The notes under the pieces are model-generated. The model made no database searches, was not told the origin of the DNA, and saw only the letters and a list, made by a program, of their open reading frames with translations. DNA of 64,000 nucleotides, from NCBI GenBank assembly GCA_046597055.1, contig JBKJLC010000131.1:32252-96251 (forward strand), in the 5' to 3' direction. Below are positions 1 through 17,009 of this stretch, in pieces. Source of the DNA: Kofleriaceae bacterium (lineage in GTDB: Bacteria > Myxococcota_A > Polyangia > Haliangiales > Haliangiaceae). A program made the translations under genes and the position numbers. How positions within the stretch are numbered: position 1 is the first letter of the stretch; every line of letters starts with the position of its first letter.

Positions 1-417
1 CTGATCGGCGGCATCGTGGCGGTGTCCGTGGGCGGGGGCGTCCTCAGCGTGGCCTCCCTGGTCGGGTTCATCACCCTGTTCGGGATCGCGACCCGGAACG
101 GGATCATGATGATCTCGCACTACGAGCACCTGCGGACGGTGGAGGGGGCCGGGTTCGACGACGCCGTCATCCGCGGCTCGCTGGAGCGGCTGTCGCCGGT
201 GCTGATGACGGCGCTGTGCGCCGGGCTGGCGTTGATCCCGCTCGTGCTGGCGGGCGGCGAGCCGGGCAACGAGCTCCAGGCGCCCATGGGCGTCGTGATC
301 CTCGGCGGGCTGCTGTCGTCAACGGCACTCAACATGCTGGTCGTCCCCGCCCTCTACGGCTGGCTGGCGCGCCCGCGCGATCCGATCGCCTCGTCGGCAC
401 CCGAGGCCCACGCGTGA
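1..417 (+). CDS. CusA/CzcA-family heavy-metal RND permease, C-terminal part (truncated by window edge)
   Basis: [57 protein letters not shown] are the RND C-terminal TM motifs; frame is open from base 1. Confidence 0.92.
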
Positions 418-421
418 GCCG

Positions 422-1474
422 GTGACCGGGCCCAACCCCATCACGCGCGGCGTCGTCCTCGCCGCGCTGGCGGCGCTCGCCTTTGGCGTCGCCACGCCCA
501 TCGTGGCGTGGGCCGGCCGCGGGGTCGGCGCGTTCACGACCGCCGCGCTGCTCTACGCTGGTGCGGCGGTGACCGCGCTGGTCCTGCGGCTGAGCGCGGG
601 CCGGTCCGACGCACGCCTGCGGCGAGCCGACCTGCCGCGGGTGCTCGCGGTGGCGCTGGCCGGTGGCGCGATCGCGCCAACCCTGCTGGCGTGGGGGCTT
701 CAGCGCTCGGGCGCCACGCTGGGCGCGCTGGTGCTGAACCTCGAAGCGGTGTTCACCGTGCTCCTGGCGCGCGCGGTCTATCGCGAGCCGATCGGAGCCC
801 GGGTCGCCGTGGCGGTGGTCGTGATGGCCGCCGGTGGCGCGGCCCTGACGCTCGATGCCTGGCGCGGCGCGAGCTGGGGCCTGCTGGGCCTCGCGGCCGT
901 CGGCGGCGCGACCGTGGCCTGGGCGCTCGACAACACGCTGACCCGACCGCTCGCCGAACGCGATCCTCTCGAGGTCGTCGCGGCCAAGGGCCTCGTCGGC
1001 GGCGCGATCACGCTCGTCGCCGCGATCATCGCGCATGACCCGATGCCCCGGACCAACGCGATCGTCGTGCTGCTCGTGTGCGGCGGGACCGGCTACGGCT
1101 TGAGTCTGCGTCTCTATCTGCTCGCGCAGCGACGCATCGGCGCTGGGCGGACCGGCTCCGTCTTCGCGCTGGCGCCGTTCGTCGGGGCGGCGCTCGCCTT
1201 CGCGTTCGGCGACCGGACCGGCGGCGCCTTCACGCTGCTCGCCGCCGCGCTCTTTGGCCTGGGCGTATTCCTGCATGTCACCGAGCGACACGTCCATGGA
1301 CATGCCCACCCGCCGCAAGTGCACGAACATCCGCATCGTCACGACGACGGGCATCACACCCATCGCCACGACCCGCCGGTGATCGGTGAGCACACCCACG
1401 ACCATGGCCATGAACCGGTCGAGCACGACCACGAGCACGCCCCCGACATCCACCACGGCCACGGGCACGACTGA
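422..1474 (+). CDS. DMT/EamA-family transporter with long His-rich C-terminal tail
   Basis: ~10 hydrophobic segments, LNLEAVFT, W.LDNTLTR; tail HVHGHAH...HEHPHRHDDGHHTHRH...HEHAPDIHHGHGH. Confidence 0.88.
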   Translation: MTGPNPITRGVVLAALAALAFGVATPIVAWAGRGVGAFTTAALLYAGAAVTALVLRLSAGRSDARLRRADLPRVLAVALAGGAIAPTLLAWGLQRSGATLGALVLNLEAVFTVLLARAVYREPIGARVAVAVVVMAAGGAALTLDAWRGASWGLLGLAAVGGATVAWALDNTLTRPLAERDPLEVVAAKGLVGGAITLVAAIIAHDPMPRTNAIVVLLVCGGTGYGLSLRLYLLAQRRIGAGRTGSVFALAPFVGAALAFAFGDRTGGAFTLLAAALFGLGVFLHVTERHVHGHAHPPQVHEHPHRHDDGHHTHRHDPPVIGEHTHDHGHEPVEHDHEHAPDIHHGHGHD

Positions 1475-1796: not shown

Positions 1797-2129
1797 ATGT
1801 GGTCGCGGATCCTCGCGTTGATCCTGGTGCTGGCCTTGTGGCCGGCGCTGGGCGAGACCGTCGAGATCGCGATGCACCTCGCCCAGCACGGTGACCTCGC
1901 CCACGAGCCCACCGACCACCATGACGGCTCGCCCCTGGGCGCCGACGAGCACGGCTGTTCGGGGACGTTTCACCTGTGTGCGTCCGGGCACGTCAGCGCG
2001 CTGTCCGCACCACGGGTGACCGTGGTCGTGACCCGGCCGTCTCGCACGCCCGCGCCTGCCATCGCGGCCCCGCTCGACGAGCTCGGTCGCGACGCTCCCA
2101 TCCCGCCGATCCGTCCTCCGATCGCGTAG
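1797..2129 (+). CDS. Secreted leader protein with His/Cys cluster and C-terminal RPP motif (CzcI/DUF2946-like)
   Basis: Signal peptide MWSRILALILVLALWPALG; HLAQHGDLAH..DHH..EHGCSGTFHLC; ends PPIRPPIA; directly upstream of czcCBA. Confidence 0.75.
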   Translation: MWSRILALILVLALWPALGETVEIAMHLAQHGDLAHEPTDHHDGSPLGADEHGCSGTFHLCASGHVSALSAPRVTVVVTRPSRTPAPAIAAPLDELGRDAPIPPIRPPIA

Positions 2130-7700: not shown

Positions 7701-7891
7701 AGAAGCCGCTGGCCACGGTGGTCATCGGTGGGCTGGTGACGTCGACCCTGCTGACGTTGCTGGTCCTCCCCACCATCTACGCCTGGCTCATGGCTCGGGC
7801 GGATCCCCCCCGTCCACTCGGATCGCTGGCAGCCCACCCGCCCGTGACGCCGTCCGAGCCGGTCGAGACCGAACCGACGGAGGTGCCGTGA
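4718..7891 (+). CDS. czcA: CzcA-family heavy-metal RND permease
   Basis: [48 protein letters not shown]; 1057 aa. Confidence 0.96.
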
Positions 7892-8357
7892 TGGCGCAGG
7901 TCCCAGCAACATCGCTGGCCAGCTCGGGATCACCGAGGCGCGGGGCGATCTGCTGCCCGAGGACAAGGTCGCCGCGATCGCCGAGCTGGCGCGCTCGGCA
8001 GACGCGGTCGCGATGGTCGGCGACGGCGTCAATGACGCGCCCGCGATGGCCAAGGCCACGGTCGGGATCACGATGGGCGCCGGCGGCTCCGACGTCGCGA
8101 TGGAGACCGCAGATGTCGCGTTGATGGCCGACGATCTGCGGGCGCTACCGTTCGCGGTCGGCCTGAGCCGCGCCTGCCGGCGGATCATTCGTCAGAATCT
8201 GTGGGCCAGTCTTGGCATGGTCGGGTTTCTCATCCCGGCCACGCTGTTCGGGTTCGCCGGCATCGGCATCGCGGTGGCCCTCCACGAGGGCTCCACGCTG
8301 GTGGTGGTCGCCAACGCGCTGCGGTTGCTCGCCCACCGCGATCCACGCGCGAGCTGA
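7891..8357 (+). pseudogene. Heavy-metal P1B-type ATPase remnant (C-terminal ~150 aa only)
   Basis: From ~7911: LLPEDKV...[11 protein letters not shown]...[12 protein letters not shown]...IIRQNL...[16 protein letters not shown]. No DKTGT or CPC region; the ATG at 7891 coupled to czcA is out of frame. Confidence 0.85.
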
Positions 8358-8480: not shown

Positions 8481-8524
8481 TTGACCGGGTGCCGCCGGTG
8501 CCGTATTCAAGAAATCAATTGAAT
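8481..8524 (+). promoter_or_regulatory. Promoter with ArsR-type operator
   Basis: TTGACC-17 nt-TATTCA; inverted repeat ATTCAA-N8-TTGAAT (8505-8524) overlaps the -10 and the start codon. Confidence 0.75.
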
Positions 8525-9209
8525 GCTGAGTAGCTCACCGCCCCATGCTGCCAAGCAGCGCATCTACGAGCAGTTCGCCCGTATCGCGAAGGCGCTGGCC
8601 TCCCCGGCCCGCCTCGAGCTGCTGGATCTCCTCGCCCAGGGCGAGCGCTCGGTCGACGCGCTCGCCCGCGCGACCGAGCTGTCGGTTGCCAACACGTCGC
8701 AGCACCTGCAGGTGCTTGCGGCCGCCCGCCTGACCGAGTCGCGCCGCGACGGTCAGCGCGTCGTCTACCGGGTCGCCGACGCCTCCGTCGAGACGCTGTG
8801 GCACGCGCTCCGCCACACCGCCGAGCGCCAGCTCGCCGAGCTCGACGGCGTGGCCCGTGACTACCTGATCGGGCGCGATGACTACCAGCCCATCGATCGC
8901 CAGGAGCTGGCCCGGCGCCTGCGCGCTGGCACGGTCACGCTGATCGACGTGCGCCCGGCGGAGGAGTACCAGCAGGCGCACATCGACGGCGCGATCTCGG
9001 TTCCGATCGACCAGCTACCGACGTGGGTCCGTACCGCCCCGAAGCGCCGCCAGGTGGTCGCGTACTGCCGAGGCCCGTACTGCGTGTACGCGCTGCAGGC
9101 GGTCGCCGCCCTTCGCAAGCGCGGCATCGCCGCCGTGCGTGCCGAGGACGGCGTGTCCGAGTGGCGCGCCGCCGGGCTTCCCATCGCCGCCGGGGCGGGC
9201 GCGCCATGA
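8523..9209 (+). CDS. ArsR/SmtB regulator fused to a rhodanese domain
   Basis: KALASPARLELLDLLAQGERSV...NTSQHL wHTH; IDVRP.EEY..AHIDGA; VAYCRGPYCVYA. Confidence 0.93.
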   Translation: MLSSSPPHAAKQRIYEQFARIAKALASPARLELLDLLAQGERSVDALARATELSVANTSQHLQVLAAARLTESRRDGQRVVYRVADASVETLWHALRHTAERQLAELDGVARDYLIGRDDYQPIDRQELARRLRAGTVTLIDVRPAEEYQQAHIDGAISVPIDQLPTWVRTAPKRRQVVAYCRGPYCVYALQAVAALRKRGIAAVRAEDGVSEWRAAGLPIAAGAGAP

Positions 9210-9940
9210 TCTTTCGACCGTTCTATCGCTTCGAGACCGGATGTGCCGCGTACGTCTTCGGCTGCGGCGGCCAGGGCCTGGCGTGCGTGGTGGACCCGCA
9301 GGAGTCCGAGGTCGAGGCGTACGTCGCGTTCGCCGCGTCCAAGGGCATGCGCATCACGCACGTCTTCGACACCCACGTGCACGCCGACCATCGGTCGGGC
9401 GGTCGGGCGTTGGCCGCGCGCACCGGCGCCACCTACGGCCTGCACCGCAGCGCCGACGTGGCCTACCCGTTCGAGCCGCTCGACGACGGCCAGGTGATCG
9501 CGCTCGGCAACACGATCGTCAGCGTCCTGCACACGCCGGGGCACACCGCCGAGAGCATCTGCCTGGTCGTCAGCGATCTCCGCCGAGGCCCGTCGCCGTG
9601 GTTCGTGTGCACAGGCGACACGTTGTTCGTCGGTGCGGTGGGCCGTCCCGATCTGCCGGGACACGAGCGCGAGAACGCGGCGACGCTCCATCGGAGCATC
9701 CGCGATCGGCTGCTCGTCCTCGGCGACGAGGTCGAGATCTACCCGGCGCACTTTGCGGGCTCGGCGTGCGGCGCGGGGATGAGCGGCAAGCCGAGCAGCA
9801 CGATCGCCTTCGAGCGGCGCTGGAACCCGCTGCTCGGCCTCGACGAGTCCGCGTTCATCGACGAGCTCGCGACCACCGTCGCGCCCAAGCCGGCCGAGAT
9901 GGCGGCGATCCTGCTCGCGAATCGTGGCAAGGCACCATGA
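9206..9940 (+). CDS. MBL-fold hydrolase (persulfide dioxygenase-like)
   Basis: THVHADH, HTPGHT, GDTLFVGAVGRPDL, YPAHFAGSACG; ATGA overlap with the upstream gene. Confidence 0.9.
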   Translation: MIFRPFYRFETGCAAYVFGCGGQGLACVVDPQESEVEAYVAFAASKGMRITHVFDTHVHADHRSGGRALAARTGATYGLHRSADVAYPFEPLDDGQVIALGNTIVSVLHTPGHTAESICLVVSDLRRGPSPWFVCTGDTLFVGAVGRPDLPGHERENAATLHRSIRDRLLVLGDEVEIYPAHFAGSACGAGMSGKPSSTIAFERRWNPLLGLDESAFIDELATTVAPKPAEMAAILLANRGKAP

Positions 9941-11202
9941 ACCCGCCCCGCGTTCACCTCGGGATCCGGGAGAACCTCGGGCAGTTCTCGCTGCTCGTCG
10001 TCGTCAACGCCTTCGTCGGCGCGATGATCGGGCTCGAGCGCAGCATCTTGCCGGCGATCGCCGAGGCGGACTTCGGGCTGGCCGCGAAGAGCGCGATCCT
10101 TTCCTTCATCGTGGCGTTCGGGGTCACCAAGGCGCTGACCAACTACGTCGCCGGCCGCCTGTCGGATCGCATCGGCCGCAAGCCGGTGCTGATCGCCGGC
10201 TGGCTGGTCGCGGTGCCGGTACCGCTGCTCCTGATGTGGGCGCCGACCTGGGGTTGGGTGCTGGTCGCGAACGGGTTCCTCGGCGTCAGCCAGGGGCTCA
10301 CCTGGTCGACGACCGTGATCATGAAGATCGATCTCGCGGGCGCCAAGCGCCGCGGCCTGGCGATGGGGCTCAACGAGTTCGCCGGCTACTTCGCCGTGGC
10401 GGTGAGCGCGCTCGCGACCGGCTGGATCGCGGCCCGCTACGGCCTGCGACCGGAGCCGTTTTATCTCGGGGTCGGTTATGTGGCCCTGGGCCTGGGCCTG
10501 TCGGTGTTCCTGGTGCGCGAGACGATCGGCCACGTGAACCACGAATCGCGAGTCCACGGTGAGCTGCCGTCGGACGGAGCCCCCACCCAGCGCGAGGTGT
10601 TCTGGCGGACGACGCTCTTCGACCGGAACTTGTCGAGCGTCACCCAGGCCGGGCTCGTCAACAACCTGAACGACGGCATGGCGTGGGGCCTGTTCCCGCT
10701 GTTCTTCGCGGCCGCGAAGATGAGCCTCGACCAGATCGCGATCCTCGCGGCGATCTATCCGGCGACCTGGGGCCTGGCCCAGCTGGGGACCGGCGCGTGG
10801 TCCGATCACGTCGGGCGCAAGCGGCTGATCGTCGCCGGCATGTGGATCCAGGCAGTCGGCATCGTCGTGGTGGTGCTGGCGGGCGGCTTCCTCGGGTTCG
10901 CGGCCGGGGCCGCGCTGCTGGGGGTCGGCACGGCCTTTGTCTACCCGACGCTGCTCGCGGCGATCGGCGATGTCGCCCATCCGTCGTGGCGCGCGTCGTC
11001 GGTGGGCGTGTATCGCCTGTGGCGCGACCTCGGCTACGCGATCGGTGCCGTGCTGGCCGGCCTCGCCGCCGATGCGTTCGGGCTGTCGGCCGCGATGGGG
11101 ATCATCGCCGGCCTGACGTTCGTCTCGGGTGCGCTGGTGGCGCTTCGCATGACCGAGACGCTGCCGCGCGCCCCAGCAGGGCAAGCCGCCTTGCGCGCCT
11201 GA
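9937..11202 (+). CDS. MFS transporter
   Basis: GRLSDRIGRK motif A, 12-TM pattern, GVYRLWRDLGYAIGA. Confidence 0.92.
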   Translation: MNPPRVHLGIRENLGQFSLLVVVNAFVGAMIGLERSILPAIAEADFGLAAKSAILSFIVAFGVTKALTNYVAGRLSDRIGRKPVLIAGWLVAVPVPLLLMWAPTWGWVLVANGFLGVSQGLTWSTTVIMKIDLAGAKRRGLAMGLNEFAGYFAVAVSALATGWIAARYGLRPEPFYLGVGYVALGLGLSVFLVRETIGHVNHESRVHGELPSDGAPTQREVFWRTTLFDRNLSSVTQAGLVNNLNDGMAWGLFPLFFAAAKMSLDQIAILAAIYPATWGLAQLGTGAWSDHVGRKRLIVAGMWIQAVGIVVVVLAGGFLGFAAGAALLGVGTAFVYPTLLAAIGDVAHPSWRASSVGVYRLWRDLGYAIGAVLAGLAADAFGLSAAMGIIAGLTFVSGALVALRMTETLPRAPAGQAALRA

Positions 11203-11276: not shown

Positions 11277-11305
11277 TTGCTGCGGCGGCATCGGTCCGGT
11301 ACAAC
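11277..11305 (+). promoter_or_regulatory. sigma70-type promoter for a leaderless transcript
   Basis: TTGCTG-17 nt-TACAAC, then 6 nt to ATG 11312. Confidence 0.6.
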
Positions 11306-11311
11306 CGCATG

Positions 11312-11632
11312 ATGGTTCGGGCCTTTCTCGTCCTCGTGCTGACCGTCCTGGTCGGCTGCGGGTTCGTGGGCACGGGCCTCGACGGTGCCTGCACCGTCGA
11401 CGATTGCGAGGCCGAGCGCGGCGACGACGACCCGGGCGCGGGTGCGGGTCAGGGCGAGTCGGACGATTGCCCCCCGTTCTGCAGTGGTTGCGTGCGCTTG
11501 CCGGTGCACACCGTCCCGCGCGTCGCGATCCAGGACGTGCCGGTTCGCGTGGCACCGATCACGACCGTGAGCCTCGTGGTGACGCCCTCGGCTCCTCCTC
11601 GGAGCGGGTTGTTCCGACCGCCGCGCGCCTGA
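11312..11632 (+). CDS. Secreted Cys-rich leader protein with C-terminal RPP motif
   Basis: Hydrophobic N-terminus; C..DDC and DDCPPFCSGC; ends SGLFRPPRA; alternative start at 11309. Confidence 0.75.
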   Translation: MVRAFLVLVLTVLVGCGFVGTGLDGACTVDDCEAERGDDDPGAGAGQGESDDCPPFCSGCVRLPVHTVPRVAIQDVPVRVAPITTVSLVVTPSAPPRSGLFRPPRA

Positions 11633-11678
11633 GCGCGTCGCGAACCCATCGGATATCAATCGTCTCGAGGAGAAGACC

Positions 11679-12038
11679 ATGAAGCGTCTCATCGTCATCG
11701 CGTTTTCGGCCGTCATGTCACTCGCCGCCTGCGACAAGGGCGGCGGCCAAGCCACCAAGCATACCGAGGCCGCTGGCGCGGCTGGGAAACCCGCGCAACC
11801 TGCTGGCACGCCGGCTCAGCCCGCCCAGCACGCCGCGGCGGCGGTGAAGCCCGGCTCGCACGAGGACTGGTGCGGCGAGCACGCCGTGGCCGAGTCGCAG
11901 TGCACCCGCTGCAACGCGGAGCTCACGCCGGCGTTCAAGGCGACCGGCGACTGGTGCGAAGAGCACGGGTTGCCCGAGTCGCAGTGCCTCAAGTGCAACC
12001 CGGACCTCAAGATCGTCCGGCCGCCCAAGGCCGAGTAG
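11679..12038 (+). CDS. Lipoprotein with two WC-x-EH...ES-x-C-xx-C metal-binding repeats
   Basis: Lipobox LAAC; DWCGEHAVAESQCTRCN and DWCEEHGLPESQCLKCNP; SD GAGGAG. Confidence 0.85.
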   Translation: MKRLIVIAFSAVMSLAACDKGGGQATKHTEAAGAAGKPAQPAGTPAQPAQHAAAAVKPGSHEDWCGEHAVAESQCTRCNAELTPAFKATGDWCEEHGLPESQCLKCNPDLKIVRPPKAE

Positions 12039-12041
12039 CCG

Positions 12042-13388
12042 ATGCGCTCGAAACGTCTGGGCGCGGCCGCGATGATCATCGCGGTGCTGGGCACGCTCGC
12101 GTGCGGACCGGGCTCCCCCGCCGAGCAGCAGCCGGCCGCGCAAGCGGCGGCGGTCGAGGGTGCCATGTGCGCGGAGCACGGCGTGCTCGAGGCGATCTGC
12201 ACCAAGTGCAACCCGAAGTTGATCCCGGTGTTCCAGGCCAAGGGCGACTGGTGCCCGGAGCACGGCTTCCCGGAGTCGATCTGCCCCATCTGTCATCCCG
12301 AGCGTGGCGGCAAGCCGGCCGGCGACGTCGGCAGCGATGCTGCGCCCGCCGATGGGACCAAGGTCCGGCTGAAGTCGCCGGACACGGCGCGGGTCGCGGG
12401 CATCACCACCATGACCGCCGAGGCCTCGCGCGAGGGCGCGCGACTCGAGGTGGTGGCGACCCTCTCGTATGACGCGCGGAAGCGCGCCGAGGTCAACGCG
12501 CGTGCGGCCGGGGTCGTGCGCACGCTGCACGTGGATGTCGGCGAGGTCGTCAAGGCGGGCGCCCCGCTCGCCACGATCGACAGCGCGTCGGTCGGCACCG
12601 ATCGCTCGCGGCTGGCGGCGTCGTCGTCGCGGGTCCGGATCGCCGAGCAGAACCACGAGCGCGAAACGGCGCTCGAGCGCACGGGCGTGTCGTCGCAGCG
12701 CGAGGTGCTCGATGCGCTGCAGGAGCTCGAGGCGGCGCGGGCCGACCGGCTCGGCGCGGTCGCGGCCCTGGGCGCGGTCGGCGGCGGCGCCCACGGCAGC
12801 AGCTACGTGCTGCGAAGCCCGCTCACCGGCACCGTCACCGGGCGCCAGGCCACGATCGGTCACATGGTCGACCTCGAGGAGATCCTGTTCGAGATCGTCG
12901 ACGTCTCCAGCATGCGCGCCGAGCTCGAGATCCCGGAGTCCGAGCTCGGCCTGGTCCGGGTCGGACAGGCGGTGACCCTGGTCGTCGACGGCCTGGGCGA
13001 GCGCGAGCTGGCCGGACGGATCGACTACATCGCCCCCGAGATCGGCCGCGAGACCCGCACGGCGAAGGCGCGCGTGATCCTCGACAACCCCGACGGCGCC
13101 CTGCGCGCGAACATGTTCGCCCGCGCCCGGATCGCGCTCGGCGCAGCGCGGCCCAGCGTGATGATCTCGCGGGACGCGCTCCAGCGCGCCGGCGCGGTCC
13201 CGCTCGCGTTCGTCGAGCTCGCGGTCGGCGAGTACGAGACCCGCCGGGTCAAGGTCGGGCGCACCGACGGCGACCAGGTCGAGATCCTCACCGGCGTGAA
13301 GCCCGGGGAGCGGGTGGTCATCAAGGGAAGCTTCCTGCTCAAGACCGAGACGCTGAAGGGCAGCATCGGCGCCGGCTGCTGCGAGTGA
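12042..13388 (+). CDS. RND membrane fusion protein with N-terminal Cys/His repeats
   Basis: MCAEHGVLEAICTKCNP / DWCPEHGFPESICPICHP; LRSPLTGTV, ETRTAKAR, LRANMF; ends GAGCCE. Confidence 0.92.
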   Translation: MRSKRLGAAAMIIAVLGTLACGPGSPAEQQPAAQAAAVEGAMCAEHGVLEAICTKCNPKLIPVFQAKGDWCPEHGFPESICPICHPERGGKPAGDVGSDAAPADGTKVRLKSPDTARVAGITTMTAEASREGARLEVVATLSYDARKRAEVNARAAGVVRTLHVDVGEVVKAGAPLATIDSASVGTDRSRLAASSSRVRIAEQNHERETALERTGVSSQREVLDALQELEAARADRLGAVAALGAVGGGAHGSSYVLRSPLTGTVTGRQATIGHMVDLEEILFEIVDVSSMRAELEIPESELGLVRVGQAVTLVVDGLGERELAGRIDYIAPEIGRETRTAKARVILDNPDGALRANMFARARIALGAARPSVMISRDALQRAGAVPLAFVELAVGEYETRRVKVGRTDGDQVEILTGVKPGERVVIKGSFLLKTETLKGSIGAGCCE

Positions 13389-13395
13389 GCGCGTC

Positions 13396-16460
<3,065 letters not shown>

Positions 16461-16464
<4 letters not shown>

Positions 16465-17009
16465 GACGGCCGGTCCGGATCGCCGCGATCGCGCTCGCGG
16501 TGATCGCGCTCCAGGCCGTGGCCGTGGTCGGCTACCTCCGGATCGAGGGCGCGCGCCGGGTCGCGTCCGGGTTCGCGGTGACCCGGTTGCCCGGCACGCC
16601 GGCGCCGTCGCTCATCGTCCTGCGACCGGACGGCACCGAGCTCGACCTGGCGACCCCACGCCCCCGCGTGCGCCTGGTCCACTTCTGGGCGACCTGGTGC
16701 GGACCGTGCCGCACCGAGCTGCCCGCGCTGCTGGCGCGCGCCGCCGAGGTCGACGGGCTCGAGCTGCTCGCGGTGTCGGTCGACGACGACTGGGACGTCG
16801 TCCGCGGGTTCTTCCCGCGCGGCCTGCCCGCCGAGGTGGTGCGCCTGCGCGACCCCGGCGCGCACCGCCGCTACGGCACCCAGGCCCTGCCCGACTCGTA
16901 CGTCCTCACCCCCGATGGCCGCGTGGTCGAGCAGATCGCTGGCGCCCGTGACTGGTCCCGCCCTGACGCCCGCCAGTACCTCCGCGCGCTGGCGACCCGG
17001 TGGCCATGA
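16461..17009 (+). CDS. TlpA-family thiol:disulfide oxidoreductase
   Basis: N-terminal TM segment; HFWATWCGPCRTELP; LPDSY; GARDW. Confidence 0.9.

Follow-up and report, generated by a model that had tools for sequence, protein, structure and literature searches.

CutF and CruR are metal-sensing leader peptides with reported experiments behind them, and both are described as copper-responsive. For CutF, the published model combines ribosome stalling with the melting of a stem-loop (PMC9973294; bioRxiv 10.1101/2025.02.05.636593), and the mature forms of both proteins have been reported as undetectable. Ozturk et al. (PMC9973294) defined CutF-like proteins by their size, a terminal Pro-Pro, a signal peptide and a close neighbour on the same strand, and listed 5334 of them; RND efflux genes are among the commonest neighbours in that account, which also mentions His-only clusters. 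CutF-like proteins of delta-proteobacteria have been reported as well (PMC8456105). Our literature search found no paper on the Myxococcota leaders described below, and members of the group may already be included in list D of PMC9973294.

The leader considered here lies in a 64,000-nucleotide stretch of DNA from a Kofleriaceae bacterium, and this whole stretch is what we call the window. We consider it probable that the leader is a CutF-like element that switches on, in cis, the translation of a CzcA-type operon for divalent-metal efflux, and that a pause prolonged by metal opens a hairpin that hides a Shine–Dalgarno (SD) sequence.

A Cys-Rich Leader Ahead of an RND Operon

The leader reading frame encodes 106 amino acids on the forward strand (11312..11632), or 106–107 if the alternative start at ATG 11309 is allowed for, and its codon use is gene-like (GC3 0.85). 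The frame and codon-bias check agreed with the preliminary description, which had read the open frame, a hydrophobic N-terminus, a CPPFCSGC motif and a terminal GLFRPPRA from the letters. The N-terminal stretch (11315..11365, +) has a hydropathy of up to 3.0, is predicted to be helical over residues 2–18, and presumably directs Sec export or anchors the peptide; of 14 members of the Cys family, one has a lipobox-like LVGC. CPPFCSGC (11468..11491, +) is a CxxxCxxC cluster of C53, C57 and C60, a putative metal or disulfide site located 41 residues ahead of the Arg preceding the terminal Pro-Pro. The tail reads SAPPRSGLFRPPRA and contains two proline pairs. The terminal pair, P103-P104 (11618-11623), belongs to FRPPRA (11612..11629, +), the presumed pause site, and is written CCG CCG. 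The other pair, P95-P96, sits 8 codons upstream within SAPP and is written CCT CCT (11594..11601, +).

Sequence searches placed the leader in no named family. A protein database search with the reading frame retrieved only itself and one relative, the leader alignment gave 23 database matches with neither a Pfam domain nor an informative name among them, and NCBIfam held no match at E ≤ 0.1. Against Pfam DUF2946 (PF11162) the leader scored 15.4 bits (E = 0.033), below the 23.7-bit cut-off.

The presumed first regulated gene follows after a gap of 46 nt and encodes a small Cys/His lipoprotein of 119 amino acids without a Pfam family (11679..12038, +). Behind it are a CzcB-like membrane fusion protein (MFP) with a Cys/His N-terminal domain (12042..13388, +), a CzcA-type heavy-metal RND transporter (13396..16464, +), and a TlpA/ResA-like thioredoxin that overlaps the RND stop (16461..17009, +) and has an equivalent position at three other loci (L133, L134, L138). 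Since these later genes are 3–7 nt apart or overlapping, translational coupling among them is expected. The RND transporter scores 1152 bits with TIGR00914 (cut-off 701), and its best PDB match is ZneA. At the columns of the CusA Met triad, described as M573/M623/M672 (PMC3637150), it has Asn, Leu and Glu, with a Met beside the third. The other RND pump of the window is 49% identical to it; both pass TIGR00914, and both are of the CzcA type without the CusA triad.

The lipoprotein has features of its own. Its unit WCxEHxxxExxCxxC is repeated and recurs at the N-terminus of the MFP, and by the filters of PMC9973294 the lipoprotein itself would count as CutF-like. Its tail, KI(V/E)RPP, is conserved, with RPP in 65 and RPA in 9 of 78 relatives. 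We considered this tail as a second arrest site and set it aside: there is no CCT bias (8/78), and the next gene, that of the MFP, starts within a few bases.

Upstream of the leader, a putative −35 hexamer TTGCTG (11277..11282, +) and a putative −10 hexamer TACAAC (11300..11305, +), whose last base is C and not T, are separated by 17 nt; the −10 ends 6 nt short of ATG 11312, or 3 nt short of ATG 11309. The leaderless-type promoter proposed earlier is there in these letters, with a non-consensus −10. A consensus scan for a promoter and a terminator at the leader found neither, so the promoter call rests on recurrence in the family. TTGC is kept in close relatives, and TAnAAC stands 6–7 nt before the start at L081, L082, L083 and L128. 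A relaxed pattern, TTG[C/A]-16..18-TA, is present, as a raw count, at 11 of 14 Cys-family loci, and at 9 of the loci it ends 2–12 nt before the chosen start; no SD precedes the leader start at 13 of the 14. The promoter at the equivalent place in the His family is clearer (23/29 loci vs. 8/507 background windows). Taken as a pattern of sequence, these features imply a leaderless or near-leaderless transcript, as far as conserved hexamers can predict one.

Window positions 8523-11202 separate the two RND operons and carry, in the same orientation, an ArsR-rhodanese fusion, a hydrolase of the metallo-beta-lactamase fold and an MFS transporter, which we take to be, possibly, a sulfur-handling cassette.

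A Predicted Hairpin over the Lipoprotein Start

The SD of the lipoprotein gene, CGAGGAG (11666..11672, +), is predicted to be sequestered in a hairpin; this hidden SD belongs to the 119-residue lipoprotein gene at 11679, not to the MFP. Its partner CTCCTCG (11595-11601), spelled by the CCT CCT of the upstream proline pair, pairs with it at a computed probability of 0.75–0.99, as had been proposed, and the position of this anti-SD is kept at L082 and L083. CCT is a rare codon in this genome: of the 107855 Pro codons counted in long ORFs, 3926 are CCT. The preliminary description had also drawn two stems around the RPP codons and the stop. Its CGCGC/GCGCG stem forms with a probability of 0.93–0.94, while GGGTT/AACCC comes out at 0.00, and crossing stems take its place: TCCGA/TCGGA (0.95–1.0) and GGTTG/CAATC (0.64–0.92). 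The inner stems of the computed fold (within 11607..11661, +) pair 11607-11 with 11657-61, 11613-17 with 11649-53 and, around the stop, 11619-28 with 11633-42; compensatory changes in these stems are found in relatives. The anti-SD does lie upstream of the terminal Pro-Pro, as described; it starts about 21 nt (7 codons) before that pair, where about 5 codons had been given.

The stability of the whole hairpin is not beyond chance (z = −1.3; 18 of 200 shuffles as stable), nor is the corresponding z-score significant for the leader of the other operon. Unlike the total folding energy, the cost of opening the SD is beyond chance: it amounts to 9.3 kcal/mol, whereas 6 synonymous recodings average 3.9 and all stay below 9.3, and 10 of 150 control junctions reach a cost of 8.7 kcal/mol. 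When a ribosome is modelled with P95 or P96 in the P site, the opening cost falls from 8.7 to 2.5–4.0 kcal/mol; with P103 it falls to 4.4–6.5, with P104 to 3.8–4.6, and at termination, when A106 occupies the P site, to 6.2–6.5. Under another folding window and footprint, a ribosome at the terminal Pro-Pro lowers the cost from 9.3 only to 7.8 kcal/mol; the effect modelled for the terminal pair at this locus depends on the footprint. The preliminary description had cautioned that the anti-SD is at the edge of a ribosome footprint. A ribosome at the terminal pair does leave the anti-SD uncovered, and yet it removes the inner stems, so that the opening cost drops all the same. In the folding model, either P95-P96 or P103-P104 could be the pausing pair.

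The on-switch that we favour can be laid out as a series of steps. A leaderless transcript would begin at the leader frame, as the conserved hexamers suggest, and the nascent peptide, given its hydrophobic N-terminus, would be exported co-translationally. By the time the ribosome is at the proline tail, the Cys cluster, some 42 residues earlier in the chain, would have just emerged on the periplasmic side, to judge from a conserved spacing that matches CutF. When there is no metal the ribosome would finish, and the computed and conserved hairpin of ~80 nt, built from the final 14 codons together with the 46-nt gap, would hide the lipoprotein SD. When metal is bound the pause would be prolonged, a step borrowed from CutF; the paused ribosome would cover the inner stems, or the anti-SD itself if it stood at the upstream Pro-Pro, and the SD would open. 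The downstream genes would follow by translational coupling, and the His-rich leader of the other operon, as a diverged paralogue, would obey the same logic. We infer the leaderless start, the export, the pausing and the metal sensing, and likewise the on-with-metal direction, which is drawn by analogy with CutF and from what an efflux operon would be expected to do.

A plainer reading has to be weighed against these numbers: the leader and hairpin may only couple translation, or the pause may report Sec export as in SecM, with metal control being transcriptional. Every P-site position from T91 to R105 cuts the opening cost in the model (8.7 to 2.5–6.5 kcal/mol), and the hairpin would open for a moment whenever a ribosome went through, which counts against the on-switch. 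The ArsR-rhodanese gene, moreover, heads the upstream genes on the same strand, and the scan detected no terminator ahead of the leader. We consider this reading quite unlikely, for it leaves the conserved Cys cluster and its fixed distance of 39–43 residues to the tail unexplained.

Codon Choice, Pairing and Kinship among Leaders

Homologues of the leader were found at E ≤ 1e-3 in 14 of the 137 other genomes of the taxonomic family (15/138 with its own); 14 of the 16 places matched in that search are true leaders, and 2 were rejected as false. The lipoprotein was also used as bait, and the best 80 of 152 loci were taken. Directly upstream of the lipoprotein gene, these 80 have a leader in 32 cases, an outer-membrane factor gene in 16 and something else in 28, many of the last being Sorangium; the remaining 4 were unscored (2 at a contig edge, 2 in which no start was found). 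The outer-membrane gene is itself preceded by a leader in 2 of the 16 loci (L133 and L134), the two that were extended. A search with the tail pattern matched 3 loci in metagenomes and, counting the genome of the window itself, 3 genomes among 147 from the order.

In an alignment of 37 sequences, P104 is the sole invariant column, C32 and C60 are nearly invariant (at least 90%), and the middle is unconserved. CxxC is present in all 14 Cys-family members, 39–43 residues before the residue preceding the proline pair. RPP had been put forward as the shared motif, and this did not hold: 42 Cys-type leaders end in RPP (13), HPP (11), xVP (9), another PP (4), RAGP (4) or none of these (1). The Arg is not conserved, and the motif is better described as a proline pair, usually followed by Arg. 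The four RAGP leaders (L002, L006, L011, L015), of Polyangium and its kin, end in RAGP-x-S-AERCIALxVFxC, where a SecM-type motif about 14 residues before the stop replaces the terminal PP.

Selection at the RNA level can be read from synonymous codons. The counts that follow exclude L090 and L092 (false matches) and L123 (from the unpublished genome G037), which enters only the tally 43/138. At 29 of 43 loci the terminal Pro-Pro begins with CCT, namely 10/14 in the Cys family and 19/29 in the His family, against 11/430 for CCT as first codon of the pair in an [R/H]PP context genome-wide; together with the next codon this CCT spells CCTCC. Among the 14 leaders of L001-L080 with a terminal PP, CCT comes first in 6. 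Folding covered 40 of the 43 leaders (L096, L100 and L112 were dropped for gaps > 130 nt; 28 leaders from L001-L080 lie outside the set) and 150 of 532 control junctions, with 6 synonymous recodings per folded locus. The SD pairs with the leader coding strand in 26/40 leaders vs. 34/150 controls, and with the Pro-Pro codons in 14/40 vs. 1/150. A modelled ribosome lowers the SD opening cost by at least 2 kcal/mol in 21/40 leaders vs. 11/150 controls, and by less than 2 kcal/mol in the other 19/40. The leader loci are kin, and the P values of these comparisons are therefore too strong. Anti-SD-like words are reported not to be depleted in leaderless mRNAs (PMC12697547), which weakens any argument from their mere presence and leaves the positional bias unaffected. 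Three His-family loci (L099, L102, L104) have their predicted SD partner in a second CCTCC directly after the stop, which brings to at least three the number of places near the presumed pause site where an anti-SD is seen.

The window leader and its two closest relatives make up the small subfamily L081-L083, where the partner of the SD lies 21–22 nt upstream of the terminal pair, at the second proline pair. All three retain a three-helix hairpin that hides the SD, with compensatory changes in the two relatives, and each beats its 6 synonymous recodings. Nine coding-strand positions show changes on both sides across the three loci, four of them synonymous; this count has n = 3, takes the partners from each locus's own fold and includes some positions with register shifts. 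A MAFFT DNA alignment of the three loci misaligned the SD side and was not used for the pair counts. In three metagenome relatives that share the tail, the gap is longer and the fold differs; two of them are without CCT at the upstream Pro-Pro, and one is without a modelled switch (4.9 to 5.3 kcal/mol). The synonymous codon bias and the compensatory pairs are evidence, at the level of sequence comparison, that the RNA switch is probably under selection. Codon bias, folding, controls and covariation together support the central proposal of the preliminary description, a leader-peptide translational switch with its anti-SD in the last codons of the leader.

The synonymous CCT bias also bears on the idea that the reading frame encodes a periplasmic metal-binding protein with its own role, similar to CzcI, the hairpin being incidental or setting mRNA stability. 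CzcI, which stands upstream of czcCBA and has no proline motif, has been suggested to be a metal-sensing regulator (PMC9973294), and nine relatives of the window leader end in xVP and not PP. A codon preference among synonyms needs a cause at the RNA level, however; the middle of the protein is unconserved while spacing and tail are kept; and structure prediction gives two short helices and no folded domain (pLDDT 90 over residues 1–10, pTM 0.24). We regard a free protein as having only a very slight chance of being the answer.

A different signal was considered for the Cys cluster, namely the thiol-disulfide state of the periplasm: a disulfide in the cluster would pull the chain free, and blocking it would prolong the pause. 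The thioredoxin that closes the operon here and at L133, L134 and L138 fits this, the CutF model is described as invoking disulfides itself (bioRxiv 2025.02.05.636593), and RAPP/RGPP leaders are reported to precede DsbA and thioredoxin genes (PMC12992588). The pump of this operon is nevertheless of the CzcA type, one family member (L093/L137) heads a gene that reads, by eye, as a cation-diffusion-facilitator, and the paralogous family adds His ligands, all of which make a redox signal very unlikely compared with metal.

That paralogous family is represented in the window by the sister leader ahead of the other RND operon (leader 1; 1797..2129, +), whose anti-SD is the terminal CCT CCG itself. 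The split into a Cys-rich and a His-rich type, noted earlier, is borne out by core medians of 6 Cys and 1 His vs. 3 Cys and 8 His. The two leaders had further been called sequence-unrelated and convergent. Pairwise similarity between them is indeed absent, but a comparison of profiles matches the two families along 60 columns that take in the Cys core and the tail (94.8% probability, E 4.9e-8), and both Cys-family profiles rank leader 1 second of 2361 small genome ORFs with hydrophobic starts (E 3.2e-5 and 0.007). The core C-x3-[FLC]-x2-C-x-C is shared at equal spacing, and members L096, L112 and L119 look chimeric. Both families match the CopL model below its cut-off (5/37 Cys-family members, best E 7.1e-5; 13/29 His-family members), and 5/37 Cys-family members match DUF2946 (best E 0.0031). 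In the reverse direction, the His-family profile does not place the window's Cys-rich leader among its top 8 in the same ORF set and scores it at E 1.5, and common composition can inflate profile scores. On this evidence the two leaders are probably remote homologues, that is, diverged paralogues; the convergence of two unrelated leaders on one design is unlikely, and it is a question independent of the mechanism.

Leader type travels with pump clade, and co-inheritance explains this. When 10 Cys-leader loci were extended, 7 had a pump of the same clade as in the window, 1 had another clade, 1 had no pump and 1 reached the contig end; of 18 His-leader loci, 15 have a pump from the clade to which the other window pump belongs, and 3 one from a third clade. 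The metal-specific attenuators suggested earlier may exist, but nothing in these loci points to them: both window pumps are of the CzcA type, and His-type leaders head two pump clades. A tentative extension, which we rather doubt, would have the Cys-rich and His-rich leaders, paralogues carried together in one Myxococcota genome, sense different divalent metals (e.g., Cd or Zn vs. Zn, Co or Ni) through the membrane and gate different CzcA clades, the anti-SD of the L081-L083 subfamily having moved from the terminal proline codons to the second proline pair, possibly a second pause site. If true, it would extend the copper-only evidence from CutF and CruR to divalent-metal efflux, and swapping parts between the two natural leaders could then show how metal selectivity is encoded in a nascent chain. 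Being 9.5 kb apart with different ligand sets, the two paralogues make a convenient test of metal selectivity.

Several neighbouring features deserve a record. An EamA-family transporter with a long His-rich C-terminal tail (window 422-1474) adjoins the first leader. After the first RND gene, a ZntA-like P1B ATPase is represented by no more than its C-terminal part (window 7890-8357), whereas L143, L145, L146 and L161 show the N-terminal part there, which points to a deletion or an assembly join in the window. Just upstream lies a third heavy-metal RND operon (G000:C41:25300-32670; L153 plus window 1-417), headed, by eye, by genes resembling a BlaI/CopY-type repressor and an M56-type membrane protein; its pump clade is headed by a His-type leader at L157, L158 and L162. 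Elsewhere in the genome, a divergent leader-like pair (G000:C67:21787-22137, +, and C67:21461-21018, −) with tails LEKPPF and RGPPGTA precedes what look like genes for a YcnI-type protein and a TonB-dependent receptor, and a further leader-like ORF with RGPP is found near C175 position 63 (−).

Comparison with Described Leaders

The arrest peptide SecM and its RAPP/RAGP relatives (PMC10987492) share with the mechanism proposed for the window leader a stalled ribosome that opens an SD-hiding stem-loop, and RAGP itself occurs in the four Polyangium relatives mentioned above. Those peptides are described as monitoring export and as heading sec/yidC genes. FRPP and FHPP do not appear among the arrest motifs in the parts of that source available to us, which also report that most RAPP-like motifs tested in ordinary proteins gave no arrest; the window tail is FRPP, not RAPP.

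The small Cys-rich ORFs that head metal operons, CopL (NF033807), CzcI, SilD, CusD and DUF6660, resemble the leader in these respects, and a DUF6660 cluster is among its top Atlas look-alikes (0.96, 149/256 features). CopL is set apart by its 40-bit cut-off, to be compared with 15.7 bits for the relative P0002 and 14.2 bits for leader 1, and CzcI by its lack of a proline motif.

CruR (Bp2923, DUF2946) of Bordetella pertussis (PMC9426467; arrest, PMC12992588) is likewise described as an exported small uORF with CxxC, a terminal proline pair and a conserved distance between them; export is a prediction for the window leader. The latter has FRPP, with SAPP upstream, where CruR has RAPP; its motifs are 41 residues apart, outside 45 ± 2, against 45 in CruR; and its gap is 46 nt against 162 nt. 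CruR is also reported to control an importer through Rho termination, with copper relieving its arrest and the signal peptide dispensable.

CutF of the Rhodobacter capsulatus cutFOG operon is closer. The likeness covers size, an N-terminal export signal (predicted here), CxxxC, a Pro-Pro-Arg tail with a spacing of about 40 residues, a short gap, a hairpin over the next SD and a detoxification operon; C60 to P103 is 42 residues, compared with 40 from C73 to P114 in CutF (numbering of PMC8456105). By the rule-based filters of PMC9973294 as described there, the leader passes four of five: it has 106–107 residues for a limit of < 150, Pro-Pro twice within the last 15 residues, a 46-nt gap to its neighbour, and a central Cys variant of CxxxC (C53xxxC57xxC60). 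A hydrophobic N-terminus stands in for the fifth, a Sec signal peptide (SPI or SPII) predicted by SignalP. The differences are that CutF has PPP where the window leader has PP and a second PP 8 codons upstream, that the anti-SD is in the leader codons whereas the CutF stem-loop is described as intergenic, and that the target is a divalent-type CzcA operon, where that of CutF is a copper oxidase; the window leader passes the cut-off of no family model. Our literature search found no paper on an anti-SD written in the proline codons of a stall site.

The leader is CutF-like rather than a DUF2946 protein, and most likely another member of the metal-responsive translation switches already described. 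The locus brings no new mechanism; what it adds to them is an unannotated Myxococcota leader family that stands before a pump without the copper/silver signature.
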